A DNA stretch of 50,438 bases from a virus (taxonomy: Duplodnaviria > Heunggongvirae > Uroviricota > Caudoviricetes), in the IMG/VR virus record IMGVR_UViG_3300011242_000001, positions 1 to 50,438 of that record, one strand, 5' to 3'. Below the pieces are notes generated by a model. It was not told the DNA's origin. It did no database searches and worked only from the letters and a program-made list of their open reading frames with translations. Numbering within the stretch: the stretch's first letter is position 1; every line of letters starts with the position of its first letter. The translations under genes and the position numbers were made by a program. Shown piece by piece: positions 12,894-47,544 of the stretch.

Positions 12894-12970
12894 TGGTGGG
12901 CCCAGACAGACTTGAACTGTCGACCATTCCATTATGAGTGGAGTGCTCTAACCAACTGAGCTATAGGCCC
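12894..12970 (-). tRNA. tRNA with CAU anticodon, probably tRNA-Ile2 (lysidine) rather than Met
   Basis: GGGCCTATAGCTCAGTTGGTTAGAGC-A-CTCCA-CTCATAA-TGGAA..TTCAAGT..TGGGCCC-A-CCA; C4-G69/C5-G68 pairs as in TilS substrates. Confidence 0.9.
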
Positions 12971-27358: not shown

Positions 27359-28315
27359 ATGAAATTTACAGATTATTTGGTTGAAAATAGATCAGTTGAA
27401 TTATATGAATCGACTACATATAATAGCTTGTTGGAAGCAGTACAGAATATTGCGAAGATGCCGCCGACATGGGTAGTTGGTTTTACAAAGGGTGAACCTG
27501 GTAAAGGAGAATTTTCAAAAACAATAGTGAATGAAACTGTTACTATTAATAATAAAGTTGCTTTTGATCGAGTAATTAAAGATTCTCTTAAAGACAATAA
27601 AGTACACGGCTTTTTGATTTGTCATAAAGAAGTACCATTATTTGCATTGGTAAAAGACAAAAAAGATAATTCATCATCTACTTTATTTGTAATTGGGCCG
27701 ACTCAAGCTCGACAGATTAAACAATCAACTTGGACAATATATACGGCACATGACGCTAAATTTTATGAAGTACATAACACATTTGATGAAAAAGAAATTA
27801 CTAATACAAATTCAATAGTGGCGCTTGGAAAATTATTAACTACATTTGTATCTAATTATGTCAAAGGATCAAATGATGATATGCAATTAAATGACGCTTT
27901 GCGTGAATTATCTATTAATATTAAAACAGTAGTTGTGGAAACTGATAATCAAAGCGATCGATCTGGTGGATCTGGTACAGGTCGAAATTCAGATGATCGA
28001 TCAGTTCATGCTAATAAAGCAATCAAAAAATTTAGTGACGACTATTTAAGTAAATTTATTGCAGACTATCATAAGCTCGTAGATAAAGAAGTTCCAAATT
28101 TAGATAAAGCCGAAGAATTGATTCAAAAATCTATTGATGGAACACTTCAACAAATTAATATTAATAAAGTCACTGCTGAATTAAAAGAATATAATAAATT
28201 GATTAGCAAATTCAGTCATGAATATAAAACTAAAAAAGCAACTAATCCAACGGATCCAAACTGGGAAGAGGAGTTTGTAAAAGACTTTATTGACTCATTA
28301 ACAGCTACAGCATAA
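27359..28315 (+). CDS. putative packaged protein, family B (leader MKFTDYLVE)
   Basis: LLEAVQNIAKMPPTW, GFLICHK, AIKKF, VPNLDK align with family B. Confidence 0.72.
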   Translation: MKFTDYLVENRSVELYESTTYNSLLEAVQNIAKMPPTWVVGFTKGEPGKGEFSKTIVNETVTINNKVAFDRVIKDSLKDNKVHGFLICHKEVPLFALVKDKKDNSSSTLFVIGPTQARQIKQSTWTIYTAHDAKFYEVHNTFDEKEITNTNSIVALGKLLTTFVSNYVKGSNDDMQLNDALRELSINIKTVVVETDNQSDRSGGSGTGRNSDDRSVHANKAIKKFSDDYLSKFIADYHKLVDKEVPNLDKAEELIQKSIDGTLQQININKVTAELKEYNKLISKFSHEYKTKKATNPTDPNWEEEFVKDFIDSLTATA

Positions 28316-28341: not shown

Positions 28342-29331
28342 TTAATCTTGTTCTTTATGTTTTTTGATCGCTTTTGTAAGATATTTCATATCCCAATCAA
28401 GTTCTGTTTTCCAATCAGACTTAATTTTACCATTTTTATATGCTTGCTTAAACGCATATAAAATGCTATTCAATGAATCAACTTTTTCTTTAAGGCCTTT
28501 TACATCGATATTAACATCTTCACCTTCAGCAGCTTTCATTAGGATATCTTCTAATTCATCAATTTTTGGTAATGAATTTTTAATATCAGTTACAAGTTCT
28601 TCAATATTATTTTTTGTGAATTTTTTAATTACAGCACGACGGTTAGTAACAAGAGAATCTTTAAGACCAAAATTTCGTTCATTACGATCATTACTACGTT
28701 CAACATTTTTTTCAATACGTTTACGATCGCGTTTAACTACTTTAACAGTAATATCTAAAGTTGAAATTACATCATCAATTGTCATCGTTTTTACAAATTT
28801 TGATTCATCTTCAATATTTGAATTGGTTTTGTCAATTGCCAATTCAGTAAGTGTTTGTGTAATTTGATCAAATGTTTCTTGTACTTTAAGATCACCAGAA
28901 TGCCATTTTCTCAAACCACCAGAACGATGAAGTGTTCCACGATCCCATTGTGTACGTAGAATTTTTTTCAAGTTACCGTCATTTGATAGTAGATTGAATT
29001 TTTTTTCATAGTTATTGATTAAAGCCAATACAGCCAAACCATCAACTTCAATAATGATACCAGCATTATCAGTAGTATCTTTTAAACTTTCTTTGAATAA
29101 CTTATTATATGCAGTTTTATTTTTAAGAATACCAGTTGACTTAATTTCAATTTCTGAATTTTCGCCAGCAATTTTATCCCAACGAGCAAATACTTTTTTC
29201 CAAGCATTTGGAAGATCGGCAAAAGATTTAATCGATTCTTCTAAAAATTCAACTTCTGCTACTTGTGTAGTTGAATCAAATAATTCATCCAAATTCATAG
29301 TCGCTTCGTTAAGATGATCTAAAAAGCTCAT
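28342..29331 (-). CDS. putative packaged protein, family B (leader MSFLDHLNE)
   Basis: LEESIKSFADLPNAWKK, AGENS, GIIIEVDGLAV. Confidence 0.75.
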   Translation of the reverse strand: MSFLDHLNEATMNLDELFDSTTQVAEVEFLEESIKSFADLPNAWKKVFARWDKIAGENSEIEIKSTGILKNKTAYNKLFKESLKDTTDNAGIIIEVDGLAVLALINNYEKKFNLLSNDGNLKKILRTQWDRGTLHRSGGLRKWHSGDLKVQETFDQITQTLTELAIDKTNSNIEDESKFVKTMTIDDVISTLDITVKVVKRDRKRIEKNVERSNDRNERNFGLKDSLVTNRRAVIKKFTKNNIEELVTDIKNSLPKIDELEDILMKAAEGEDVNIDVKGLKEKVDSLNSILYAFKQAYKNGKIKSDWKTELDWDMKYLTKAIKKHKEQD

Positions 29332-29469
29332 TATATTTTCCTTAAGTGTAAAAAAACGTTTACTTTATTTAATTTAAAAAATATAAATTTTTTTAAAATA
29401 TGTGTGTACATATGATTTTACTTGCTATATGATAGCCTCATCACGATAAAACATACTCGGATATATGAA

Positions 29470-31506
29470 ATGGATAAATTAAATTTTAAAGACTTCTCTA
29501 CAGCAGTAGAGGCACAATATAATAAGATGGTATCTGATAAAGATGCAACTCTTGTTCGCGTTGCAGTTGATATGGAAGAGTTATGGGATACATATTTAAA
29601 TGCGTTTCCACAAAATACGAACTCACTGTTCCGTGAGCGCCGCGCTTATGATTGTAACTGCTGTAAAAACTTTATTCGTCGCGTTGGTAATTTAGTTGCT
29701 TTGAAAGGCACTGAAATTACAAGCGTATGGGATGTTACTGTTCCAGGCTATTTCCAAGAAGTTACTGATAAAATGGCTGCTTATGTAAAAGAACAGCGCA
29801 TTGATACAATTTATGCAACTTCTGAAGGCATTGCTGGTGGTTTATCAAACTTTGATAATTATAATCCTGAAATTAAATGGGATCACTTCTATGTAAAAGT
29901 GCCAACTGAATTTGTTTATAAAAATGATGCAATCGGTACATATTTGGGTGAATTCCGCGGTCATAAAGATGTATTAGAACGCTCTTTGAAAGAATTAAGT
30001 CTTGATGCTGCAGAAACTGTACTTGAATTAATTGAGCAAGGTTCTTTATACCGTGGCACAGAAAACAAATTTGCAGTTACAACTTTTATTAAGCATAAAC
30101 GCGAATATGATGCGATTGAAGATGAAAATCAAAAACGCTCTTATGTGTGGCAAGCTGCAAAAGTTTTAAAACAACATGGTCGTATTAAAAATACTTCAAT
30201 TGGTACACTGTTAGCAGCATTAACAGAAGGTCAATCTTTAGAAAAAGCAGTTAGTGCATTTGAATCAATGGTTGGTGGCGCCAACTATAAACGTTCTAGT
30301 GCATTAGTTACTCCATCCATGATTAAAACTGCGCAAGAAAAAATTCGTTCTTTAGGTTTAGAGCCAAGTCTTGAACGCCGATTTGCGAATAAAAATGATG
30401 TTACTATCAATAATGTATTGTTTAGCACAATCCATAAAAAATCATTAAATGTATTTGATGATTTAATTGAAGAAGCTGGTCGTAAAGTAACTGATAAAAA
30501 ACTTGACAAAGTTGAAACTGTTAGTTTGGAAAAATTTATTAATGATATTTTACCAAATTCAACTAAATTAGAAGTTATGTTTGAATCACGACTTAAAAGC
30601 AATCTAATGACTTTAGTTGCACCAGTTCATCAAACTGCACCAAATATGTTTAAATGGAATAACCAATATTCATGGGCATATAATGGCGATGTAACGGATA
30701 CCATTAAAGAACGCGTTAAAGAAGCTGGTGGTGATGTGGAAGGCGATTTACGTGTATCATTATCATGGTATAATGCAGATGACTTAGATTTATCATGTAT
30801 TGAACCAAATGGTAATACAATTTATTATAGCCAAAAATCGTCTCGTCATTCAGGCGGTATGCTTGATTTAGATATGAATGGCCTTGATAAACATAGTGAT
30901 ACTGCACCAGTTGAAAACTTGATTTATAAAAATAAATCAAAAATGCCACGTGGTGATTATAAATTTATTGTTCATCAATTCTCACGTCGTCGTAATGAAG
31001 ATGTTGGATTTGCAGTTCAATTAGAATTTGATGGTCAAATCCAAACATTTGCATATGATAAAGGTTATGTAAATGGCCGTCGTGAAACAATGTTTGTAAT
31101 TAATTGGGACGGTGAAAAGTTCACATTAAAAGACGTATGGAATGAATTTACATCATCGTCTGCGGCAAAAGAAAGCGTTTGGAATATTACAAGTAATGAA
31201 TTTGTTCCAGTATCAATGGTAATGAACTCGCCTAACTATTGGGATGATAACAAAACTGGTAATAAACATTTGTTCTTCATTTTAGAGAATTGTAAAAATG
31301 AAGAACCGGTGCGAGGATTCTTTAACGAATACTTGAAACCTGAACTAAATGATATCCGTAAAACGATTGAAGTGTTAGGCAGTAAATTAAAAGCTCAACC
31401 TACTGAAGAACAATTAAGTGGTTTAGGCTTTAGTGAAACAATTCGCAATACTGCGACAGTACGAGTTACTGGAAAAACTCAACGCGTATTTAAAATTAAT
31501 TTCTAA
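29470..31506 (+). CDS. large conserved phage protein with C-terminal YfaP/DUF2135-like domain
   Basis: YDCNCCKNF; LRVSLSW...DLDL...G.LDLD...VEN; ATG 29470 after a promoter at ~29403-29433. Confidence 0.7.
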   Translation: MDKLNFKDFSTAVEAQYNKMVSDKDATLVRVAVDMEELWDTYLNAFPQNTNSLFRERRAYDCNCCKNFIRRVGNLVALKGTEITSVWDVTVPGYFQEVTDKMAAYVKEQRIDTIYATSEGIAGGLSNFDNYNPEIKWDHFYVKVPTEFVYKNDAIGTYLGEFRGHKDVLERSLKELSLDAAETVLELIEQGSLYRGTENKFAVTTFIKHKREYDAIEDENQKRSYVWQAAKVLKQHGRIKNTSIGTLLAALTEGQSLEKAVSAFESMVGGANYKRSSALVTPSMIKTAQEKIRSLGLEPSLERRFANKNDVTINNVLFSTIHKKSLNVFDDLIEEAGRKVTDKKLDKVETVSLEKFINDILPNSTKLEVMFESRLKSNLMTLVAPVHQTAPNMFKWNNQYSWAYNGDVTDTIKERVKEAGGDVEGDLRVSLSWYNADDLDLSCIEPNGNTIYYSQKSSRHSGGMLDLDMNGLDKHSDTAPVENLIYKNKSKMPRGDYKFIVHQFSRRRNEDVGFAVQLEFDGQIQTFAYDKGYVNGRRETMFVINWDGEKFTLKDVWNEFTSSSAAKESVWNITSNEFVPVSMVMNSPNYWDDNKTGNKHLFFILENCKNEEPVRGFFNEYLKPELNDIRKTIEVLGSKLKAQPTEEQLSGLGFSETIRNTATVRVTGKTQRVFKINF

Positions 31507-34533: not shown

Positions 34534-34799
34534 TATAAAAAATATAATTTTTTTGTATAAATATGTTTTAAAATTAGTAAAACTGTATTACATTATGATA
34601 CAGAATGAAATAAATGTTAACGTGTATCTTTAAACAGATACATTTAATCTTAACTTATCTTCTAAAGGAGAAGACGCTAGAATCGCGCTATGACGACTAC
34701 AACTAAATCTGAGACGATTTGACCGTAAAAGTTGCGTGTTCGACAAGCACTAAGATGAATAGCAATCCCGTTATTCATCGACAAATTGGAGAAACATCA

Positions 34800-35180
34800 A
34801 TGATGAAAATCAAAAAATCAATAATCCTTGCATTTGCACTTGCCTGCATCACCATAAGCACACCATCCTTCGCACATGAGACCGTAAAAACTTTGGGTGT
34901 AAAGACTGCATCCTGGTATGGAAAGCCTTTCCACGGACGAATAGCAGCTGATGGATCACGCTTTAATATGTATCACCAAACGGCAGCACATCGCACATTG
35001 CCATTCGGTACAAAATTAAAAGTTACCTGTGCTCAAACTGGAAAATCAACAATTGTAACTGTGACTGACCGAGGTCCATTTCATGGTAATCGGGCATTAG
35101 ATTTATCGTATGGCGCGGCCAAGGCGATTGGTCTTATCGATCAAGGCGTAGGCAAAGTTAAAATCGATATTTTAAAATAA
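34800..35180 (+). CDS. RlpA-like double-psi beta-barrel lytic transglycosylase with signal peptide
   Basis: ASWYG..FHG, TAAHRTLPFGT, V.DRGPF, DLS..AA; GGAGA RBS before ATG 34800. Confidence 0.9.
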   Translation: MMKIKKSIILAFALACITISTPSFAHETVKTLGVKTASWYGKPFHGRIAADGSRFNMYHQTAAHRTLPFGTKLKVTCAQTGKSTIVTVTDRGPFHGNRALDLSYGAAKAIGLIDQGVGKVKIDILK

Positions 35181-36738: not shown

Positions 36739-37692
36739 ATGCCATTAGAACACTTAAAATCAAAGAAAAATGAAATCGCTCAACTACAATCTCGCCTAAC
36801 ACAAATGAAGGGCAAGAAGTCTGATGACGAAGTATATTGGAAATTGACAGTTGATGCTGCCGGTCAAGGTGTTGCAGAAATTCGTTTATTGCCAGCTGCT
36901 GAAGGCGAAGACTTTCCATTTGTAGAAGTCAAAGATTATGGTATTGGTGTATTCCATCCAGAAATTGGCAAAAAGAAATGGTACATTGAGCGTTCATTAG
37001 AAACAATTGGTAAAAAAGATCCAGTTAAAGATGAATTCTGGGCGCTTCACAACTTGGGTACAGAAGAAGCGAAAGCTGACGCTAAACTTATCCGCGATCG
37101 TACTTCATACATCGTTTGGATTTATGTTGTGAATGACAAAAACGCTCCAGAAAACAACGGTAAAGTGATGAAAGCAAAACTTTCTCCTTCTATCTGGAAA
37201 TTTGTTACTGATAAGCTAACGCCGCAATTTGAAGACGATGAAGATGAACAACCTCTAAATGTATTTGATTTGTGGGAAGGTGCGAACTTAAAAATTCGTG
37301 CGTATAACGGTAGCAATAACATGCGTACATATGACAAAACTGTTTGGATGAATCCTGGGCCATTGTTCCAAGATGACGCTAAATTAGAAAAAATCTATGA
37401 GCAAGTTAAAGGCTTGAATGATGAAGTTAGCCCAACGTCTAAGCATTATAGTAAAACCTATGAAGAATTAGAAACTAAGCTAGAAGCTACATTAGGTCGC
37501 AAACTGGTTAAAAACCAAGGTGCAACTGATCATAAAGCTGCTCTAAATGATGCATTTGCTGAACCTACTTCAACACAAGTTGCTGCAGGTAAAGATAATG
37601 ATGTAGGTGATTCTTATACTGAAGCTCTAGGCAAAGTACAAGAACCAGCTGATATCAACGATGCTGAACTTGAAGCTCTACTCAATTCTTAA
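36739..37692 (+). CDS. 32: single-stranded DNA-binding protein gp32
   Basis: WKL.VD..G.G.A.IR.LP, WYIE.SL.TIG..DPV, PENNGKV, FDLWEGAN.K, acidic tail. Confidence 0.93.
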   Translation: MPLEHLKSKKNEIAQLQSRLTQMKGKKSDDEVYWKLTVDAAGQGVAEIRLLPAAEGEDFPFVEVKDYGIGVFHPEIGKKKWYIERSLETIGKKDPVKDEFWALHNLGTEEAKADAKLIRDRTSYIVWIYVVNDKNAPENNGKVMKAKLSPSIWKFVTDKLTPQFEDDEDEQPLNVFDLWEGANLKIRAYNGSNNMRTYDKTVWMNPGPLFQDDAKLEKIYEQVKGLNDEVSPTSKHYSKTYEELETKLEATLGRKLVKNQGATDHKAALNDAFAEPTSTQVAAGKDNDVGDSYTEALGKVQEPADINDAELEALLNS

Positions 37693-37700
37693 TTGAATTG

Positions 37701-37766
37701 TATAAATAAAAGGTGACACTATTGTCACCTTTTATTTTTTATAAATATAATAAAAATATATAAATA
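37701..37766 (+). promoter_or_regulatory. terminator (37708-37733) plus late promoters TATAAATA (37701, 37740, 37759)
   Basis: AAAAGGTGACA-CTAT-TGTCACCTTTT and three TATAAATA boxes. Confidence 0.75.
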
Positions 37767-37774
37767 TAATAACC

Positions 37775-38083
37775 ATGAAAGTCTTATCACATAATGGCCA
37801 TCAAAATTTTAGTGGCATTCGCAAAACAGTTCATGAATCATATTTTAAAATTGAATTCACAACCGGCGAAATTATAAAATGTACAGAGAATCATTTATTT
37901 GAAACTTTGAACGGGCCTATTACCGCTCAAATTTTAACCAAAAATGATGAACTAATACATTCAGAAAATAAAACGACTTTTATTAAATCAAAACGCCGAA
38001 TTAAAAATAAATTTGAAGCTTATGATTTAGTTGATGTTGATCATGGATCTTTATATTATACAAATAATATTTTAAGTCATAAC
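37775..38083 (+). mobile_element. atypically split intein C fragment (103 aa)
   Basis: IKCTENHLF (block B TxxH), YDLVDV...LYYTNNILSHN|C (blocks F/G); no N-terminal block A. Confidence 0.9.
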
Positions 38084-38863
38084 TGTAGTTTTCTAGGATC
38101 ATCTAATACATTAATTGATCCGGGTAAATTACAACATCTTGTGTTTTTACCGCCTGTATTATCACAAAAATATTTAGATATATATGAACAACCACAACCC
38201 GGTCATACATATATTACAACAGTTGATACTGGTGCCGGACTATCACAAGATTATTCAATTGTAAATGTAATTGATGTAACACAAGCTCCTTATAAGCAAA
38301 TATTAGTATATAGAAATAATGAAATTGATCCAACCTCTTTTTCAATTGTAGTTGAATCAATTGCGCGTAAATACAATAAGTCGTATTTGGTTATTGAATC
38401 AAATAATGATGGCAAGATTGTATCCCGTGAATTATGGGATATGGAATATGAAAATTTAGTCAATACTAGAAGTGAAAATGGAGATAACGTTGTAAAGGGT
38501 GGTAAACGTTCTGTACCGGGTATCATGATGACTAAATCAACAAAAAGAACAGGCTGCTCTAAATTAAAAGACTTAATTGAATCAGAAGTATTAGTTATTC
38601 AAGATCAAAATACAATTTCTGAATTAGGCACATTTGTTCAATCTAAAGGCAGTTTTTGTGCAGAACCTGGTAAACACGATGATATTGTAATGTGTTTAGT
38701 TATGTTCGCATGGTTTGCTACTACTAACTATTTCTCTGATGTGACTGGTAATAATACTAGCCAATCGATTAAAGAAAATAGATCCGATGATGATATTCAT
38801 ACATTACTAGGATTTATTAATGATGGTGATACAGATGATGAAGTATCATTTGGATTTTGGTAA
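37775..38863 (+). CDS. 17: terminase large subunit C-terminal (nuclease) half fused to a split-intein C fragment
   Basis: after SHN: CSFLGSSNTLI, VDTG.G...DYS, IESNN.G, HDD.VM.L; no Walker A/ATPase domain. Confidence 0.92.
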   Translation: MKVLSHNGHQNFSGIRKTVHESYFKIEFTTGEIIKCTENHLFETLNGPITAQILTKNDELIHSENKTTFIKSKRRIKNKFEAYDLVDVDHGSLYYTNNILSHNCSFLGSSNTLIDPGKLQHLVFLPPVLSQKYLDIYEQPQPGHTYITTVDTGAGLSQDYSIVNVIDVTQAPYKQILVYRNNEIDPTSFSIVVESIARKYNKSYLVIESNNDGKIVSRELWDMEYENLVNTRSENGDNVVKGGKRSVPGIMMTKSTKRTGCSKLKDLIESEVLVIQDQNTISELGTFVQSKGSFCAEPGKHDDIVMCLVMFAWFATTNYFSDVTGNNTSQSIKENRSDDDIHTLLGFINDGDTDDEVSFGFW

Positions 38864-38917: not shown

Positions 38918-40648
38918 ATGGCAGAATTTGCTTCTCCTGGCGTTATCTCTACTGAAAGAGATTTTAGCGCAACAGTACAAATGTTAGGTACTGCAACAGG
39001 TGGTACAGTTATTAATTCAAAATGGGGATTCGCAGATTTTGAAATGATCGTTGCGAACGAAGATGAATTAGTAAATCTTGCAGGTAAACCAACCGATGCT
39101 AACTATCGTGACTGGTTTGCTGCAGCAAACTTTTTGAAATATTCAAGCGCACTTCGTTGGATTCGTGTAATTGACGATGAAACTGCATTAAATGCAGCAA
39201 CTGGTGGTGCTAGCGGTATTTTGATTAAAAATAAAACCCATTTAGATGTAGTACGTAGTGTATCTGCACTTACTCATACATTTGCAGCTAAATGTCCAGG
39301 TAAACTAGGTGATAGTATCGGTATTTCAATTGCTGATGCAGCAACTTATAGCACTTGGGCTTATAAAGATAGCTTTGATACAGCTCCGGATTCATCTGGT
39401 GCATTATCAGCAAGTGATAAGCCTGCATTAGACGAAATCCATGTAGTTGTTATTGACGTGCTTGGTTTGTTCTCTGGTGTTGCCGGTTCGGTACTTGAAA
39501 CATATCCGTACTTATCAAAAGCACGCGATGGTAAAGGCGTAAATGGCGAATCTTCATACTATATTAACGTGCTTAACACGCGTTCAAATTATGTATGGGC
39601 ATTAAGTCCGATCCCAGGTACTGCATTAGTAGAAGCTGATCCAGATGCACCTACTTCATTAGTTGGCGCTAACTTATCTGATGGTAAACCATTTGCACCA
39701 TTTACTGCTGCAATTACTGCTCAGTTTGCTGGTGGTAATGATGGCGATATCCCTGGTAAAGACAACTACCTAAATGCATTTGATATCTTGACTTCATCTG
39801 ATGATACTGATATTGCATTGCTATTTGCTGGTGGTTGTGGTAATGATCTAAATCAGCCAGATGTATCTAATCACGTTTTAACAATTACTTCACGCCGCGG
39901 TGATATGGTTGGCTTTGTTTCACCTAAATTTAGCGATGTGGTTGGTGTTATTAAAACTATGGTTGTTAAAAATATCATTGCAACTAAGAATTCTTTAACT
40001 ACTAAAGACTCTTATGGTGTTATGACTACCGGTTATAAATTACAGTATGACCGCTATAACGATATTAACCGTTGGGTGCCTGGTAACGGTGATGACGCTG
40101 GTTTATGTGCTCGCGCAGAAAACTTGTTTGACGTTTGGGTATCTCCAGCCGGTTTTACTCGTGGTCATTATATCGACTGTCTTGATCTTGCATTTAACCC
40201 AGATAAAAATGCACGTGATGAATTGTACCGTGAAAATATCAACCCAGTTGTTACTTTCCCTAAAGATGGTACTTTGCTATACGGTGATAAAACACTACAA
40301 GCTAAGAACAGTGCATTCTCTTGGATCAACATTCGCCGTTTGTTTAACTACTTACGTAAATCAATCCAAGCATCTGCAAAATACAATCTGTTTGACTTCA
40401 ACACCTCGTTCACTCGTCAGGCGTTTAAAGATCAAATTGAACCACTTCTGCGTGAGATTAAAGGCCGTAACGGTATCTTTGACTTCTACGTTCGTTGTGA
40501 CGAAAGCAATAATACGGACGCTGTAATTCAGAAGGGTGAATTCCTTGCTGACATTATCATCAAGCCACAATACTCAATTCAAGGTATTCGTTTATCATTT
40601 ACCGCGGTACGTCGTGAAGTTAGCTTCGACGAAGTAATTGTAGCTTAA
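38918..40648 (+). CDS. 18: tail sheath protein gp18
   Basis: SPGV...E.D, W.SPAG..RG, RDELY...INPV, GDKT, INIRRLF. Confidence 0.95.
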   Translation: MAEFASPGVISTERDFSATVQMLGTATGGTVINSKWGFADFEMIVANEDELVNLAGKPTDANYRDWFAAANFLKYSSALRWIRVIDDETALNAATGGASGILIKNKTHLDVVRSVSALTHTFAAKCPGKLGDSIGISIADAATYSTWAYKDSFDTAPDSSGALSASDKPALDEIHVVVIDVLGLFSGVAGSVLETYPYLSKARDGKGVNGESSYYINVLNTRSNYVWALSPIPGTALVEADPDAPTSLVGANLSDGKPFAPFTAAITAQFAGGNDGDIPGKDNYLNAFDILTSSDDTDIALLFAGGCGNDLNQPDVSNHVLTITSRRGDMVGFVSPKFSDVVGVIKTMVVKNIIATKNSLTTKDSYGVMTTGYKLQYDRYNDINRWVPGNGDDAGLCARAENLFDVWVSPAGFTRGHYIDCLDLAFNPDKNARDELYRENINPVVTFPKDGTLLYGDKTLQAKNSAFSWINIRRLFNYLRKSIQASAKYNLFDFNTSFTRQAFKDQIEPLLREIKGRNGIFDFYVRCDESNNTDAVIQKGEFLADIIIKPQYSIQGIRLSFTAVRREVSFDEVIVA

Positions 40649-40681
40649 TAAAATAAAAATAATAAACAAGGAGAAATAAAC

Positions 40682-41248
40682 ATGGCAGCTAATGTCAATT
40701 CATTCCTGGCGAACTTCACGGGCGGTGGCGCCCGTGCTAACCGCTATGAAGTAATGATCGGTTTTCCAAACTTTTTAAACGTACGTGATACTGCTATTTT
40801 GCAAAAAATTAGCTTTACATGTAAAGCATCAAGTGTACCGGCATCAGAACTAGGCGAAGCAGTTGTACCATATAAAGGTCGTCAAATTAAAGTCCCTGGT
40901 GACCGTACTTTTGGTGACTGGACTGTAACCATTATCGTAGACAATGACTTTAAAGGTCGTGACGTATTCGAAACATGGTCTGCTGGTATGCTGGGTAACT
41001 CAAGCAACGTAACTAAATCTGCAAATGAATTAAACCCATTACAGATTTATGGTCAAGCTCAAGTAAACTTACTTGATCGTTATGATCAAGTTATCAAGCG
41101 TTACCAAATTACTGGTATGTTCCCTAAATCAGTTGGTGAAATCACTATTGGTTACGACCAAAATGACCAAGTAATGGAACAACAAGTAACATTTGCAATC
41201 AACGAATGGTCTGCGTATAGCAAAGACGGCGCGTTAATTACAAACTAA
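40682..41248 (+). CDS. 19: tail tube protein gp19
   Basis: GGGARANRYEV, GR.IK..GDRTF.DWT.T. Confidence 0.93.
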   Translation: MAANVNSFLANFTGGGARANRYEVMIGFPNFLNVRDTAILQKISFTCKASSVPASELGEAVVPYKGRQIKVPGDRTFGDWTVTIIVDNDFKGRDVFETWSAGMLGNSSNVTKSANELNPLQIYGQAQVNLLDRYDQVIKRYQITGMFPKSVGEITIGYDQNDQVMEQQVTFAINEWSAYSKDGALITN

Positions 41249-41340
41249 TTTTTTTAAAGTAAAAAGAGGATCTTCTGGTCCTCTTTTTTTATTCTTTATT
41301 TTTTACATAAATATATAGTATATAAAAAGGTGAAGTATAA

Positions 41341-42960
41341 ATGGGCATATTTGACGGCTTTCTAACCGAAAAAAGACAAAAAAAAGAGAATCTTGAAGTT
41401 CTCGATACAAAAAATTTAGATATAAATGATGGCGACTCAATTGTTGTAAATGGGTATGGCCATGTTAATAACACTCAATTTTATCAATACGAGCGGGGGC
41501 AGAATGAAACTACCCGTATTGAAACCTATCGTCAAATTGCTAAGACTGCCGAAATTGATGAAGTAATTACTGATATTGTAAATGAGTCATTTATTTTTCA
41601 GCGCGACAAAAAAGCTTTTGAATTAGATTGGCATGCTAATGTAAGTATTTCTGATCAGCTTAAAGAAAAAATATATGAAGAATTCTGTAATATCTATGCT
41701 ATATCAAATTTTGATGACTATGGATCTGAACTATTACAAAGCTTCTATATTGACGGGCGTATTGTATTTGATAAAGTAGTTGATAAAAATGCACCTAAAA
41801 AAGGTATTCGTCAAATTATTAAACTTGACCCGCTGAATATTGTTAAAGTAAAAGTATTACCACCACGTGATAGAAATACACAAATGGTAAATGCATCCGA
41901 TATTAAAGAATTCTATGTTTACTCAAACAAAAAAATTAAAAATCAGAATAACTATTTGAATAATGTGTATTCAAATTATGACGATGTAGTTGAAGGAAAA
42001 CAGCTAGATACCAATCGAATTACATATGTAACATCCGGTCTTACTGACGCTATGTATGATATGACAATTGGACACCTGGATAAAGCGATTGTTCCATATA
42101 ACAACTTGAAAATGATGGAACAATCCATGGTTATTTTCCGTGTTGTTCGTGCACCAATGCGCCGTGCGTTTTATGTAGATGTATCATCTTTGCCAAAAAG
42201 TAAAGCTGAAGAATACATGAAAAATATGTCAACCCGTTTTAAATCTAAGCTTGTTTATAACTCAGACACCGGTTCATGGGTAGATCAAAAATCTGTTATC
42301 TCAATGGCAGAAGATTATTTTATTCCACGTTTTAATGAATCGAAAACAACAGAAATCCAAAATATTGAAGGTCAATCGTCTCAAGAAATTCTTGAAGAAG
42401 TATCTTATATGAAGGATAAATTATATCAAGCATTGAACGCACCAAAATCACGTTATACAGAAGAAGGGCATATTTTTGTTTATGGAAAATCTGATCAAAT
42501 CTCGCAAGATGACTACCGTTATAAAAAGTTTATTGATCGCTTGCGTAACCGCTTTATGCTTGCATTTGATGACTTATTAAAAACTCAATTAATTTTAAAG
42601 TCAATTATTTCAGAGTCTGATTGGCCTGAAATTAAACGGTCATTCTTTTGGAATTTTACTGAAGATAATGCATTCATTGAATATAAAGATGCAGAAATTT
42701 TTAATAATCGTATAGATACTATATTAAAAATGAATGACTTAATTGAAGCCGGTATCTATTCAAAATTATGGGTTCGTAAAGTTATTCTTAAACAAACTGA
42801 CGATGAAATTAGAGAAATTGACGAGCAAGTTTATAAAGAAAAAAATCAGGACCCATCTCAAATGCCTGATAATGTTCCGGCACCAGAACCATCACCGGAA
42901 ACTGACGACACCGATGGCACTGATGGAGAACCTGTTTCTACTGATGATGAGCAAGCATAA
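41341..42960 (+). CDS. 20: portal protein gp20
   Basis: I..IVNE, FYIDGR, L.KA....N.L.M.E...VI.R..RAP.RR.FY.DV, EDYF.PR. Confidence 0.95.
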   Translation: MGIFDGFLTEKRQKKENLEVLDTKNLDINDGDSIVVNGYGHVNNTQFYQYERGQNETTRIETYRQIAKTAEIDEVITDIVNESFIFQRDKKAFELDWHANVSISDQLKEKIYEEFCNIYAISNFDDYGSELLQSFYIDGRIVFDKVVDKNAPKKGIRQIIKLDPLNIVKVKVLPPRDRNTQMVNASDIKEFYVYSNKKIKNQNNYLNNVYSNYDDVVEGKQLDTNRITYVTSGLTDAMYDMTIGHLDKAIVPYNNLKMMEQSMVIFRVVRAPMRRAFYVDVSSLPKSKAEEYMKNMSTRFKSKLVYNSDTGSWVDQKSVISMAEDYFIPRFNESKTTEIQNIEGQSSQEILEEVSYMKDKLYQALNAPKSRYTEEGHIFVYGKSDQISQDDYRYKKFIDRLRNRFMLAFDDLLKTQLILKSIISESDWPEIKRSFFWNFTEDNAFIEYKDAEIFNNRIDTILKMNDLIEAGIYSKLWVRKVILKQTDDEIREIDEQVYKEKNQDPSQMPDNVPAPEPSPETDDTDGTDGEPVSTDDEQA

Positions 42961-43009
42961 ATATAATTATAAATATTCTATATAAATATAAAATAAAAGG
43001 ATAATTATA

Positions 43010-44200
43010 ATGACAGATTTTAATAAAAAATTGTCAAAATTATTAAATGAAAATGTTACGCACATGATTTTCATGGATGAGCCATTAACGGCTGAAATTG
43101 ATGAATCTGTAATTGTAGGTGAAATTTCTGCGGCAGGTCCATTATATGGATTAAAGTATCTTGGTTATGAAGAGGGTGTATTATCATTCTCTACATATCA
43201 AAAGACGTCTATTGAAAAGTTCGCGATGTTTTTAGATGATAATGACTTTGTTGAAAATTATGCAATTTCAGTTATTGAATCTAATCCAATGACAAAAGTT
43301 GCTAATGTTGTAGATGAAATTGATTTTGATTCTACACGCGAATCTGAATTTGTGGAATTCTTTATCGATGTTGTTATTAGTTGGAATTATGTCAACTTTA
43401 ACAGCGTTTATGTAGACCCACAAAATCCATTCGCCGCAAATCAATCCACATCTTTTCAAATTCCGATGGATACAAGCGATCCATATGCAGCTCATGTCCC
43501 ATTAGATAAAGAACCAGCAGAATTTTATGATAATAATGATTTTGAATATCCAGATGCGGATGCAAAAATTGCTATTGTCCCTGGATTCGATACACTTCAA
43601 GCGGATGAAACTCCATTACTTGTAAAATTATCTGCTATTAAATCAAATTCATTAGTTGGATCCGTATTAGTTACAGTACATCCAAAAAATGATGATGAGA
43701 TTTTAGTTCAAGCTACTTATAAAGAAGAACCGGTTACGGACGATGTTTTAAACGACTTATCAGTCATTAATACATTAGATCAGCTTTATCCGACTAAGCT
43801 TGAGCTAGTTAAAGAAGCATTTTATCAATTAGGTGACTTATTTACTAGTTCGGCTGTATATAAATCAATAAATGGTAAGAATGTTTTAAATATAGTAGAA
43901 GTATTTGCAAATAGTGCAGATGAAGTTATATGTGATACCAATTTATTGAACGAGTTACGTCGTGAAATTAAAGTAAATTTCCGCGGCAAGAAACGTATAA
44001 AAATGCAATGCCAACCTGGATTCAAATATGACCCAGAACGTATGGCATGTGTAAAAATTTCTGGTGCAGAATTGGCCGTATCACGAATCGCTCATCGTCA
44101 AATGGCACGTACTAAGAGAGCGCTAGGCGGAAGCTATAGAACAAGAATTTTAAGAAAAGTTCGCCGCGCTAAACATTTTAGAAAAATCATGGGGCTATAA
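43010..44200 (+). CDS. prohead core protein, gp68-like C-terminus with long acidic N-terminal region
   Basis: basic C-terminus R.AHRQMARTKRA...RK.RRA...RK.MGL; between portal and protease. Confidence 0.7.
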   Translation: MTDFNKKLSKLLNENVTHMIFMDEPLTAEIDESVIVGEISAAGPLYGLKYLGYEEGVLSFSTYQKTSIEKFAMFLDDNDFVENYAISVIESNPMTKVANVVDEIDFDSTRESEFVEFFIDVVISWNYVNFNSVYVDPQNPFAANQSTSFQIPMDTSDPYAAHVPLDKEPAEFYDNNDFEYPDADAKIAIVPGFDTLQADETPLLVKLSAIKSNSLVGSVLVTVHPKNDDEILVQATYKEEPVTDDVLNDLSVINTLDQLYPTKLELVKEAFYQLGDLFTSSAVYKSINGKNVLNIVEVFANSADEVICDTNLLNELRREIKVNFRGKKRIKMQCQPGFKYDPERMACVKISGAELAVSRIAHRQMARTKRALGGSYRTRILRKVRRAKHFRKIMGL

Positions 44201-44202
44201 AA

Positions 44203-44904
44203 GTGATTAAAGACGGAACCGCACTCTTAATTGAGCGTAACTTAGAATTGACTGAAAGCAATATTATCACCGGCGATAATGCTACTAATGATAAGAAATA
44301 TATTATCAAAGGTATTTTCATGCAGTCAGATTTAAAAAATCGTAATGGTCGTATCTATCCAGAAAAATATATGGATCGCGAAGCGACTCGATATATACAA
44401 GAAAAAGTTTTAACACATCAAGCTACTGGTGAATTAAATCATCCAACTGGTGATGGCAGTTTATCAGTGAATTATGAACGCGTATCTCATAAAATTACCA
44501 GTCTAACTAAATGCGGTAAAAACTGGATGGGTGAAGCATTGATTACACATAAAACTCCAATGGGCTCTGTAATTGCAGGCCTTATGGAAGCTGGCGTTGT
44601 AATGGGCGTATCTTCACGCGCAACAGGTTCATTGAAATTAGATGGACATGGCGTAAAGATTGTTCAAGAAGATTTTAGATTAATTACTCCTGCTGATATT
44701 GTATCTGATCCATCTGCACCTGACGCATTTATGACTTCTATTATGGAAGGTCATGAGTGGTTATATGTGAATGGCGCATTAACAGAACAAGCAATTAGTG
44801 AAGTAAAAACCGTGCTAAATAAAGAAGCAAAGACGATTGTAAAAAATGAAGAACAATTAATCAATGTTTTTAGCTGGATTTTAACTCATAAAGTGGGTAA
44901 ATAA
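44203..44904 (+). CDS. 21: prohead protease gp21
   Basis: I.GIFMQ....NRNGRIYP, GELNHP, GVSSR..GS, D.V.DPSAPDA. Confidence 0.95.
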   Translation: MIKDGTALLIERNLELTESNIITGDNATNDKKYIIKGIFMQSDLKNRNGRIYPEKYMDREATRYIQEKVLTHQATGELNHPTGDGSLSVNYERVSHKITSLTKCGKNWMGEALITHKTPMGSVIAGLMEAGVVMGVSSRATGSLKLDGHGVKIVQEDFRLITPADIVSDPSAPDAFMTSIMEGHEWLYVNGALTEQAISEVKTVLNKEAKTIVKNEEQLINVFSWILTHKVGK

Positions 44905-44956
44905 TTTTTTTTTATAAATCGCTTAAATAAATAAAAAATATTGGAGAAATATTTAA

Positions 44957-46240
44957 ATGAACGAATTTAAGAAATTAATGGGCGATGCTATTTCAGACGA
45001 AACAGCTACAGCTCTTCAGACAATCTTAGATACACACCTTAATGAATCTGAAGCAAAAGCAAAGCAAGAAGCTGAAAAAATTCAATCTGAATTAAATGCT
45101 CTTACTGAACAACATGCTGATCTACAAGAATCAGTAACTAATTTGACTAAAGACAAAGCAGACTTAGAAGCTGACAAAGCCGATCTTGCTGAATCTGTTA
45201 AATTAGCTGAAGAAAAAGTTGCTGAACTTACTTCTAATATTGATACGCTTAAAGAAAAAGCAGAAGAATATGCTGAGCAAGTTAAACAAGAAGCTCTTGA
45301 AGAAGCTGTTGCAGAACACCAACAAGAAATCGCTACTCTTAAAGAACATGCTGAAGCTTATGCTGAAAAAGTTAAAGAAGAAGCTGTTGCCGAATTAACT
45401 GAAGCACAAGAAACCGAAATTTCATTCCTTAAAGAACAAGCTGATTTATTTGCTGAAAAAGTTAAAGCTGAAACTACTGCTGAACTTACTGAAAAGGCAG
45501 ATGCTTATGGTGTTTATCTTCAAGAAAAAGCTGAAGAGTATGCTGAAAAAGTACGTCAAGAAACTATCGTTGAAATGACTGAAAAAGCAGACGCTTATGG
45601 CGATTATCTTCAAGAAAAAGCTGAACAGTATGGTGTTTATCTTCAAGAAAAAGCTGAAGAATATGGCGAATTCTTAATTGCCGAAGCAGAAAAGTATACA
45701 GCTGAACAAGTAGCTCTTACTGAAGCAAAATGTTTAGCTGAAGCTGAAAAGCAAATTAATGAATTCAAAGACGAACACAAAGATCAATTTGAGCGTTTAG
45801 ATGAACATAACCGTATGGCTATGGTATTTAAAAATCTTAAATCGTTAATCGAATCTTCTGGCTTCTCTATCGAAGAGTCTGAAACTCTTGATACTTTAGA
45901 AGAAGAACTGCGCCAAGCTCGTGCTGCAAATCGCCGCCTTGAACGTACTTTACGTGAAAGCTCGCAAGAACTTAAACAGCTTAAAGTAAAAGAACTAGTT
46001 GAATCAATGGCTGAAGATTTAACCTTCACTGATAAAGAACGTATTGTGAAAGCCGCTTTACGCACTCGCAGTGAAACCAATGAAGATCTTTCAGAAGTTG
46101 TTAAAACTTTAGTTGAAAATACTACGCTAAATAATAATAGCAATAAAGCAAATACAACAACTGTTAGTACATTGACCGAAGAAACTGCAAATACTGCATC
46201 CACTAAAGTTAAGTCTGGCTGGGCTGAATTCTTGAAATAA
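44957..46240 (+). CDS. 22: prohead scaffold/core protein gp22-like
   Basis: long E/A/K coiled coil with many L-x-E sites; between genes 21 and 23. Confidence 0.85.
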   Translation: MNEFKKLMGDAISDETATALQTILDTHLNESEAKAKQEAEKIQSELNALTEQHADLQESVTNLTKDKADLEADKADLAESVKLAEEKVAELTSNIDTLKEKAEEYAEQVKQEALEEAVAEHQQEIATLKEHAEAYAEKVKEEAVAELTEAQETEISFLKEQADLFAEKVKAETTAELTEKADAYGVYLQEKAEEYAEKVRQETIVEMTEKADAYGDYLQEKAEQYGVYLQEKAEEYGEFLIAEAEKYTAEQVALTEAKCLAEAEKQINEFKDEHKDQFERLDEHNRMAMVFKNLKSLIESSGFSIEESETLDTLEEELRQARAANRRLERTLRESSQELKQLKVKELVESMAEDLTFTDKERIVKAALRTRSETNEDLSEVVKTLVENTTLNNNSNKANTTTVSTLTEETANTASTKVKSGWAEFLK

Positions 46241-46311
46241 GAATTCAATCTAAAATAACAATTTTTTAAACGTTTTTATTAAATAAGAATAAACAATAAG
46301 GAAACAAGAAA

Positions 46312-47544
46312 ATGAGTCAACAACTTCTTACAGAAAAATGGGATGACGTTTTAACTGACAACCGCTTTGCCCCAGTTCAAGACGACACTCGCGCTAAGAT
46401 CACTGCACAACTTTTGGAAAACCAAGAGCAGAATCTTTCAGAATCTACTAACGAAACTGGTAATGCTGCGCAGTGGAATCCAATTTTGATTAGCATGGTA
46501 CGTCGTATCGCTCCACGTCTAATCGCTTATGATTTAGTTGGTGTTCAACCGTTAACTCTTCCTACAGGCCTAATCTTCTGTATGAAAGCACGTTATGCTG
46601 CTGATACTGCAAAAGCTCAAAACGATCTTACTAACAAAGAAGCAATGGGTTGGGACGAAGTTGATGCTGGTTACTCTGGTGACAAAACTCCAAATGCTGT
46701 AGTTGCTAATAGCTTTGCTGGTGGTGTTGCGTATGCTCGCGGTAAAGGTATGACTACTCAAGCTGGTGAACAATCTAACGCTTGGAACGCTATGGGCGTA
46801 ACAATCGAAAAAACCAACGTTAATACTGAAACTCGTCAATTACGTGCTGACTACTCGCAAGAGATCGCAGAAGATATGAAACGTGTTCACGGTATGAATG
46901 CAGATTCAGAACTAGTGAATATCATCTCGAATGAAATCACTGCTGAAATTAACCGTGAAATGCTTGACAAATTGTATGTATCAGCTAAAACTGGTGCTCA
47001 ATGGACAGCTACTCCAGGTACTATCGATCTAACTGCTGATGTTGGTGGTCGTTGGTCTGCAGAACGTTTCCGTGGTCTTCAGTTCGCTATCGAACGTGAT
47101 GCTAACCGTATTGCAATCGAATCTCGTCGTGGTAAAGGTAACAAACTTATCGTTTCTGCTGATGTAGCTTCTGCTCTTGCATTTGCTGGTATCATGTCAT
47201 TCGCTCCTGCGATTGCTGCTCAAACTAACTTGAATGTAGATCCATCTGGTGCTACTTTCGTTGGTACACTTGGTACCTATAGCGTTTATGTTGACCCATA
47301 CGCTCAAGGTGATGGTTACTTAGTTGGTTATAAAGGTCAAGACGTTACTGACTCTGGTATCTTCTACTGCCCGTACTTACCGCTTGCTCTTAGCCGTGCA
47401 ATCAACCCAGTTAACTTCCAAATGGCTCTTGGCTTCAAGACTCGTTATGGTTGGGCTGTTAACCCGTTCGTTAGTGCTACAAATACTTTCGTTCCTGGTG
47501 CGAACCCTTACTACCGCGCTGCTCAAATCAGCGAATTGTTCTAA
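46312..47544 (+). CDS. 23: major capsid protein gp23
   Basis: L.EKW..VL, LLENQE, GVQP...PTGLIF, EI.AEINRE, YCPY.PL, GFKTRYG. Confidence 0.97.
   Translation: MSQQLLTEKWDDVLTDNRFAPVQDDTRAKITAQLLENQEQNLSESTNETGNAAQWNPILISMVRRIAPRLIAYDLVGVQPLTLPTGLIFCMKARYAADTAKAQNDLTNKEAMGWDEVDAGYSGDKTPNAVVANSFAGGVAYARGKGMTTQAGEQSNAWNAMGVTIEKTNVNTETRQLRADYSQEIAEDMKRVHGMNADSELVNIISNEITAEINREMLDKLYVSAKTGAQWTATPGTIDLTADVGGRWSAERFRGLQFAIERDANRIAIESRRGKGNKLIVSADVASALAFAGIMSFAPAIAAQTNLNVDPSGATFVGTLGTYSVYVDPYAQGDGYLVGYKGQDVTDSGIFYCPYLPLALSRAINPVNFQMALGFKTRYGWAVNPFVSATNTFVPGANPYYRAAQISELF

Follow-up and report, generated by a model that had tools for sequence, protein, structure and literature searches.

The DNA analysed here is a stretch of 50,438 nucleotides, referred to as the window, which corresponds to the first 50 kb of a viral record of 380,997 bp (30% GC) that is classed as complete and carries a 77-nt terminal repeat. 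On the plus strand of the window, an ORF of 362 aa (37775..38863), here named piece D, encodes a C-intein followed by the nuclease of the large terminase subunit (TerL), and it is the only one of four terL genes of this genome that lies inside the window. The first 103 residues (37775..38083), recognised by motifs and by a match to a solved chain, carry intein blocks B (T37, H40), F (D84) and G (H102-N103) without block A, and they are followed by C104. Among solved chains, the top match of residues 1-102 was CatC, the C-half of a consensus intein of the atypical TerL kind (6dsl_B, E 8.1e-10). The remaining 259 aa (38084..38863) consist of the Cys+1, a linker and the RNase H-fold nuclease of TerL, as seen by alignment and by a Terminase_6C match to residues 149-307 (E 4.4e-11). 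The ATG is preceded by in-frame stops 8, 9 and 11 codons upstream, showing that piece D is not the tail of a longer frame. Being long, provided with blocks B, F and G, devoid of block A and placed at the opening of its own ORF, this C-intein fits the atypical class of split inteins. The residues, the Terminase_6C match and the CatC match thus bear out an earlier note on this DNA, which had described an intein segment of 103 aa without block A in front of a gp17 nuclease.

Upstream of piece D, profile searches matched gp59 and the single-strand DNA binding gene gp32 (36739..37692, plus strand), the neighbour that the earlier note had named, and downstream, on the same strand, gp18 sheath, gp19 tube, gp20 portal, gp21 protease, a gp22-like gene and gp23 capsid (38918..47544), so that piece D stands where the 3' end of gene 17 normally lies. 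In the gap from gp32 to piece D, folding revealed a palindromic, terminator-like hairpin of 15 pairs (37704..37737); the 71-nt fold of this region has -19.8 kcal/mol and a z of -6.1, equalled by none of 200 shuffles. An upstream terminator had been proposed earlier; the hairpin is absent from the list given by a terminator scan of the region. The late boxes announced at the same place were recovered by motif scan as three TATAAATA boxes on the plus strand (37701..37766, starting at 37701, 37740 and 37759), 74, 35 and 16 nt upstream of piece D, whose resemblance to T4 late promoters suggests a putative promoter function. The TATAAATA motif lies within 80 nt of 23 of 423 ORFs versus 6.1 expected from an even spread that does not control for AT-rich intergenic DNA, and sigma-70-like sites near piece D are not commoner than in shuffles (7 versus 9.6).

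As claimed previously, neither an ATPase piece nor a match to genes 13-16 could be placed in the window by profile searches. Outside it, gp13 is found near 149 kb (149165-149914, plus strand) and gp14 and gp15 at 131-132 kb, spanning G000:C1:130175-132092 on the minus strand together with a weak gp16 match at 130 kb (E 3.5e-5, under cut-off). The T4 head-completion cluster is scattered, with gp14, gp15 and the weak gp16 far from gp13 and from every terL piece. A crude motif scan detected no homing-endonuclease-like ORF within 3.5 kb of any of the four pieces, and the absence of such genes asserted before holds over this scope. The window also encodes an RlpA-like double-psi beta-barrel protein among the replication genes (34719-35180, plus strand; DPBB_1, E 2e-23), a tRNA-Asn (2399-2474) and a tRNA-Met (12894-12970, minus strand), and long ORFs of 694, 318, 329 and 396 aa (29422-31506, 27359-28315, 28342-29331 and 43010-44200) for which Pfam gave no match and NCBIfam none better than E 0.04; the last of these ORFs sits between portal and prohead protease. 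Fourteen further tRNA calls fall at G000:C1:370545-380585, near the other end of the genome.

The three other pieces came to light when the genome was searched with Terminase_6N, with profiles of inteins and with two split terminases already annotated. Piece A (G000:C1 327565-328509, minus strand) encodes a 132-aa extein ending at the Walker A Lys, a whole mini-intein of 146 aa and, directly abutting it, a 36-aa N-intein followed by the stop. Piece B (G000:C1 197759-198463, plus strand) is composed of a 117-aa C-intein, an 84-aa extein starting from the Walker A Thr and a 33-aa N-intein, while piece C (G000:C1 195052-195828, plus strand), the predicted partner of D, has a 118-aa C-intein, a 93-aa extein with Walker B and motif III and a 47-aa N-intein. 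The pieces are separated by 2.7 to 160 kb and occupy both strands, and each has its own ATG and TAA stop; piece C lies upstream of piece B with a LamG-domain gene between them. In this region (L088:7831-16878, corresponding to G000:C1:195831-204878), pieces C and B alternate with long genes of 628, 677, 907 and 542 aa, the first two LamG-like, which probably encode virion proteins and are transcribed together with the terminase pieces. The N-inteins of 36, 33 and 47 aa all start with Cys1 and end at the stop codon, in agreement, like the CatC match, with the earlier assignment to atypically split TerL inteins with a long C-intein and a short N-intein.

A profile built from 50 intact-length TerLs matched four frames among the 4797 of the genome, those of the pieces (E 5e-88 to 5e-24; next best 0.23), and no intact terL was present among these 4797 frames, in line with the previous view of a broken gene 17. 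Scanning the genome for intein motifs returned three N-inteins and five block F/G ends, namely the three C-inteins and two whole inteins, in piece A and in NrdA; two further tails that resembled them, in frames without relation to TerL, were set aside. NrdA, the class I ribonucleotide reductase large subunit (968 aa, named from motifs; G000:C1:114935-117841, plus strand, L003), lies outside the window and holds its whole mini-intein at about 116213-116659. The unlinked partner that the earlier note had foreseen, ending in QExx|C and a short N-intein, does exist as piece C, but with an N-intein of 47 aa and not of 25-35. A gene in two halves, on the other hand, does not describe the locus: piece C provides just 93 ATPase residues behind its own front C-intein, and B and A supply the rest, so that three trans-splicing steps and one cis step would be needed.

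When the exteins (132, 84, 93 and 259 aa) were joined in a script, a TerL of 568 aa, or about 64 kDa as estimated from its length, was obtained that is 46.5% identical to an intact TerL over residues 42-557 (E 4e-178) and holds Walker A, Walker B, motif III and the nuclease acidic residues. All three junctions are free of gaps in the alignment with 12 intact-length TerLs (the first 12 of the 50). The A/B junction splits Walker A between Lys and Thr, the B/C junction falls directly before Walker B, and the C/D junction is near the ATPase-nuclease boundary, at the QExx|CxFLGS site of intact TerLs, which is also the site of Vibrio phage VP-1. The insertion site of AceL-TerL, which the earlier note considered to match, may be the same one.

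We consider it very likely, judging from gene content and alignments, that TerL is encoded here by four separate genes whose products would be joined into a 568-residue motor by trans-splicing, through three atypically split inteins and one whole intein. The predicted steps are drawn from standard intein chemistry. The whole mini-intein of A would splice out in cis, using Cys1 of the abutting N-intein as the +1 nucleophile; the N-intein of A would then pair with the C-intein of B, closing Walker A (Lys|Thr); the N-intein of B would pair with the C-intein of C, just before Walker B; and the N-intein of C would pair with the C-intein of D, attaching the nuclease. Historically, mobile inteins probably entered three conserved sites and split one after another, so that the pieces could drift apart and the inteins could no longer be lost.

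Alternatively, one or more junctions might not be ligated at all, the intein halves docking or being cleaved off while the fragments fold together as in genes-in-pieces enzymes. The position of the C/D junction near the domain boundary would suit such an arrangement, as would the activity of the isolated T4 nuclease domain reported in the available text of PMC3074133 and a known split NrdA that functions in pieces; in the text of PMC3074133, however, ATP stimulated the full-length T4 protein and not its isolated nuclease domain. Moreover, junction 1 cuts between the Walker A Lys and Thr, junction 2 is directly before Walker B, and the B and D families show no change in residues that serve ligation and not binding alone. 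Assembly without ligation therefore appears unlikely.

Joining could also take place at the RNA or DNA level, by intron trans-splicing or recombination, with the inteins then splicing in cis. Precedents are the Jug phages, whose terL is fragmented by group I introns with RNA splicing shown (accessible part of PMC12880540), and the split terL of Campylobacter phage IBB_35, read as an intein plus an intron (accessible part of PMC3322345). Here, Rfam gave two tRNAs only and no intron in the window and in stretches of 18 kb around C/B and 16 kb around A, and splicing of the Jug phage type was rejected, no Rfam intron match being found near any piece. Each piece has its own start and stop, B is downstream of C, A is on the other strand, and no joint was found in the DNA contigs of the sequencing runs examined, which makes this route very improbable.

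We also weighed whether the layout is an artefact of assembly or a decayed remnant carried by a defective phage. No single contig bridges the 37704-37737 hairpin with 31 letters on each side in any of four runs, and gp32 is not connected to D in one contig because the contigs of all four runs break at this palindrome. In each of these runs (from four studies), however, one contig starting from 37708 spans the upstream stops, the start and the whole of piece D, and at the hairpin the contigs to its left and right overlap, their depth being similar; the check for a misassembly at about 37.7 kb thus secures piece D with its upstream stops but not its link to gp32. The order C, spacer and B is found within one contig in two of three DNA runs, and in the third run it is spread over two contigs that overlap; a single RNA run gave no contig over the C/B region, a neutral result. 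Dozens of diverged homologs keep the same ends, the genome is classed as complete with terminal repeats, and the artefact is in our view largely refuted and hardly probable. Near-identical copies of the locus were seen in runs labelled metagenome, freshwater, aquatic and bovine gut (X3, X6, X8, X12).

Stand-alone homologs of the four pieces, with identities of about 44-99%, keep the splicing residues. The layout of B recurs in 72 of 93 matches, that of A in 32 of 35, and that of D in the 37 best matches after the query, among 120 listed of 173; for C, three diverged full-length homologs from loci and one representative were found. In a midpoint-rooted tree of D with intact TerLs thinned, the D-layout proteins and the query form one clade (38 of 82 sequences, FastTree support 0.97). 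The alignments comprised 36 of 38 D proteins, 40 of 72 B proteins and 25 of 33 A proteins, and the splicing residues are invariant or nearly so in all three families; in the D family, H40, H102, N103 and C104 are found in 36/36 and T37 and D84 in 35/36. In the synteny comparison that had been suggested, L108 shows C, a long spacer gene and B in that order, with identities of 47% and 65%; over the C/B and A regions, L110 and L187 run collinear at 98%. No nuclease piece was found on the 78-kb contig of L108. Homologs of A, B and D are each on a contig of 299,728 bp, probably the same one, and all four pieces were seen together on one contig in this genome only. Among isolated phages none is close, the best capsid matches (55%) being Stenotrophomonas and Xanthomonas phages, and a scan of viral contigs with the window protein, piece D, gave no close relative (best 43%).

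The gene is in one frame in 206 of the 242 loci retrieved with TerL queries. Of the best 150 representatives for piece C, 25 were flagged as having a front C-intein and a rear N-intein, a pattern count that includes a few false rows. One locus (L114:137-4173) has a multi-split terminase with AB, C and D close together, and in another (L109:2035-6750) CD and B are separate genes, CD being upstream of B, with neighbour gene sizes that resemble those around C/B here. Together with Vibrio phage VmeM-32 and Salicola phage SCTP-2 (see below), these loci and the counts for C indicate that multi-piece TerL is a wider trend. The clade described here is the most divided form of TerL among those examined.

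The two inteins of piece A deserve separate description. The front one is a class 1 whole mini-intein, with C133, T211, H214, D257 and C279 in 25/25 aligned homologs and N278 in 22/25, and it exceeds the cut-off of TIGR01445 (36.4 bits). A whole intein precedes the N-intein in 32/32 full-length A homologs; this search covered 172-550 aa, so that forms lacking the whole intein, at about 168 aa, may have escaped it. For its C-terminal part, the front intein has a median score of 104 against the Cys+1 family of the Walker B site versus 36 against the Walker A family, in keeping with the insertion of this element into the Lys|Cys bond that the resident intein creates. The AlphaFold model of piece A is of low confidence (mean pLDDT 51, pTM 0.29); all 41 fold matches listed for it are inteins or HINT domains, giving weak support to the assignment. 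Class 3 inteins have a non-nucleophilic first residue, a Trp after the block B His and a Cys at F4. In 6 of the 32 A homologs (P0101, P0102, P0104, P0125, P0126, P0127), a third, class 3-like intein stands ahead of both, with Ala or Pro as first residue and HxW and YC motifs in 6/6 complete elements, and the stack at the Walker A Lys|Thr bond consists of the class 3-like element, the class 1 whole intein and the N-intein, in this order.

In three of the 32 A homologs (P0112, P0117 and P0124, representing 3, 1 and 23 member sequences), the front intein lacks the terminal Asn and has Ser or Tyr instead; these share an altered block G and retain Cys1, Thr and His of block B, and Asp of block F. 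With the terminal Asn lost, the front intein cannot free itself in the usual way. Tentatively, and with rather more doubt than belief, we propose an acyl relay, in which the front intein would activate the Walker A Lys and pass it as a thioester to Cys1 of the abutting N-intein, to be taken directly by the C-intein of B with no need for release of the front intein. The three homologs without Asn, which alternatively may be dead alleles, would be accounted for if the thioester went directly to Thr+1 of B. If the relay is true, the four genes would form an assembly line in which one intein serves another, with up to three inteins stacked at one bond in relatives.

The pairing of N- and C-inteins given above is predicted from the order of the exteins. 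The arrangement of C-intein, extein and N-intein is the one used to cyclise proteins, and both B and C carry a front C-intein and a rear N-intein, so that selective pairing is required for them not to cyclise or skip a piece. In comparison with the inteins of other phages, IntC-B alone is clearly tied to its site family (median score 167 versus 100 or less), IntC-C and IntC-D are ambiguous, and the N-inteins are too short to be assigned. CatC matches the IntC-B (1.9e-6) and IntC-C (1.3e-6) profiles and also the whole intein of piece A. The N-inteins of A and B are 42% identical and differ in median net charge (-6, n=32, versus -1, n=69), with Asp12 in 31/32 A N-inteins versus Lys13 in 67/69 B N-inteins; a conserved hairpin at residues 11-14 is acidic in the former and basic in the latter, while the N-intein of C has no such hairpin and a longer tail. 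These differences in charge and hairpin are candidate specificity features. Selectivity is not a given, since cross-reaction occurs mostly among atypically split inteins whose peptide is short, according to the available text of Pinto et al. (PMC7090010). At the C/D pair, our guess is that D's C-intein, the shorter one, lacks a strand which C's longer N-intein provides, the three pairs having similar lengths (153, 151 and 150 aa); this idea is weakened by C-inteins of about 100 aa outside this clade and by whole inteins with a short linker (L188). The penultimate His is missing in the C-intein of C and in the whole intein of A.

AceL-TerL is an atypically split TerL intein, and a study on TerL inteins of mycobacteriophages reportedly exists. 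An essential enzyme made from separate genes by trans-splicing is known from the split DnaE of cyanobacteria, with one canonical split (long N-intein, short C-intein) and two pieces. That system, mentioned in the consulted part of PMC4760082, is comparable to TerL here in restoring an essential enzyme but differs by its two pieces and its canonical split. In the terminase locus of the GOS data, two pieces have an endonuclease gene between them and a C-half of 122 residues without N1 (Dassa et al. 2009, PMC2677866, accessible portion). The GOS, AceL and Cat inteins share with ours the long C-intein with all motifs but N1, the short N-intein starting with Cys1 and the T4-like TerL host; in the portions of the sources available they are described as one split and two pieces, whereas the present phage has three splits and four genes, with a whole intein placed directly against an N-intein. 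The fractured-gene layout in the same portion of Dassa et al., on the same strand, in order and with an endonuclease between, also differs from the present one, with both strands used, two pieces reversed and no endonuclease motif. Among isolates, Aeromonas phage PX29 (17A/17B), Vibrio phages VP-1 and VmeM-32 and Campylobacter phage CP21 have a TerL in two pieces with the same kind of intein at the same or neighbouring sites, but one trans junction each, any further inteins being whole; the pieces of VmeM-32 are about 79 kb apart on opposite strands. In CP21 (L094:6900-8771), a frame of 631 codons comprises a C-intein, a short extein, a whole intein and the rest of TerL, and the annotated CP21_127 starts well inside it, its front part having been missed.

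Closest in organisation is the isolate Salicola phage SCTP-2 (MF360958.1, 440 kb), with unlinked TerL pieces at about 429.4-429.8 kb (minus), 256.4-257.3 kb (plus) and 216.0-218.1 kb (minus; L093, L097 and L103, respectively), which bear atypical intein halves, the middle piece having a C-intein in front and an N-intein at the rear. It differs from the present genome in having three pieces and two atypical pairs, with the second split three residues further on, the nuclease still fused to the Walker B part and no stacked intein. Its third piece has a C-intein ending in Gln and carries a further whole intein. The record labels the middle piece terminase large subunit with no intein note, and in the consulted passages of papers on the SCTP-2 terminase the split is not mentioned. 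Jug phages, as far as the available text of PMC12880540 goes, differ by group I introns in terL. Engineered tandem protein trans-splicing (PMC12707363, PMC7090010, consulted portions) joins segments in order by orthogonal split-intein pairs, as predicted here, but with man-made sets of inteins of different origin in place of a natural set of related ones. A literature search that left most subscription journals, and the biochemical papers on the AceL, GOS and Cat inteins, outside its scope found no TerL in three or four trans-spliced pieces and no abutting inteins; among the sources consulted were the accessible portions of PMC6892783, 10.1101/2025.01.02.630785, PMC10189870, PMC7824862, PMC7412058, PMC6102473 and PMC5259590. 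Six phrases for tandem or nested inteins returned nothing on the subject, and neighbouring inteins at distinct sites are described in PMC10643990 (available part).

If the trans-splicing of TerL is true, an essential enzyme would be made from four genes by three trans-splicing reactions without cross-reaction in one cell, a natural counterpart of the multi-part protein ligation built by engineers. The phage would thereby offer a natural set of three selective split inteins, with numerous homologs and with N-halves of 33-47 aa that can be synthesised, within a class known to suffer from cross-reaction, and both the stacking of inteins at one bond and the order of splicing become testable. Annotation and trees based on TerL misread such phages, as each piece resembles a broken gene. 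Comparable middle pieces recur in other T4-like TerL families, and the case would show how split inteins can let exon-sized parts of a gene scatter over a genome.
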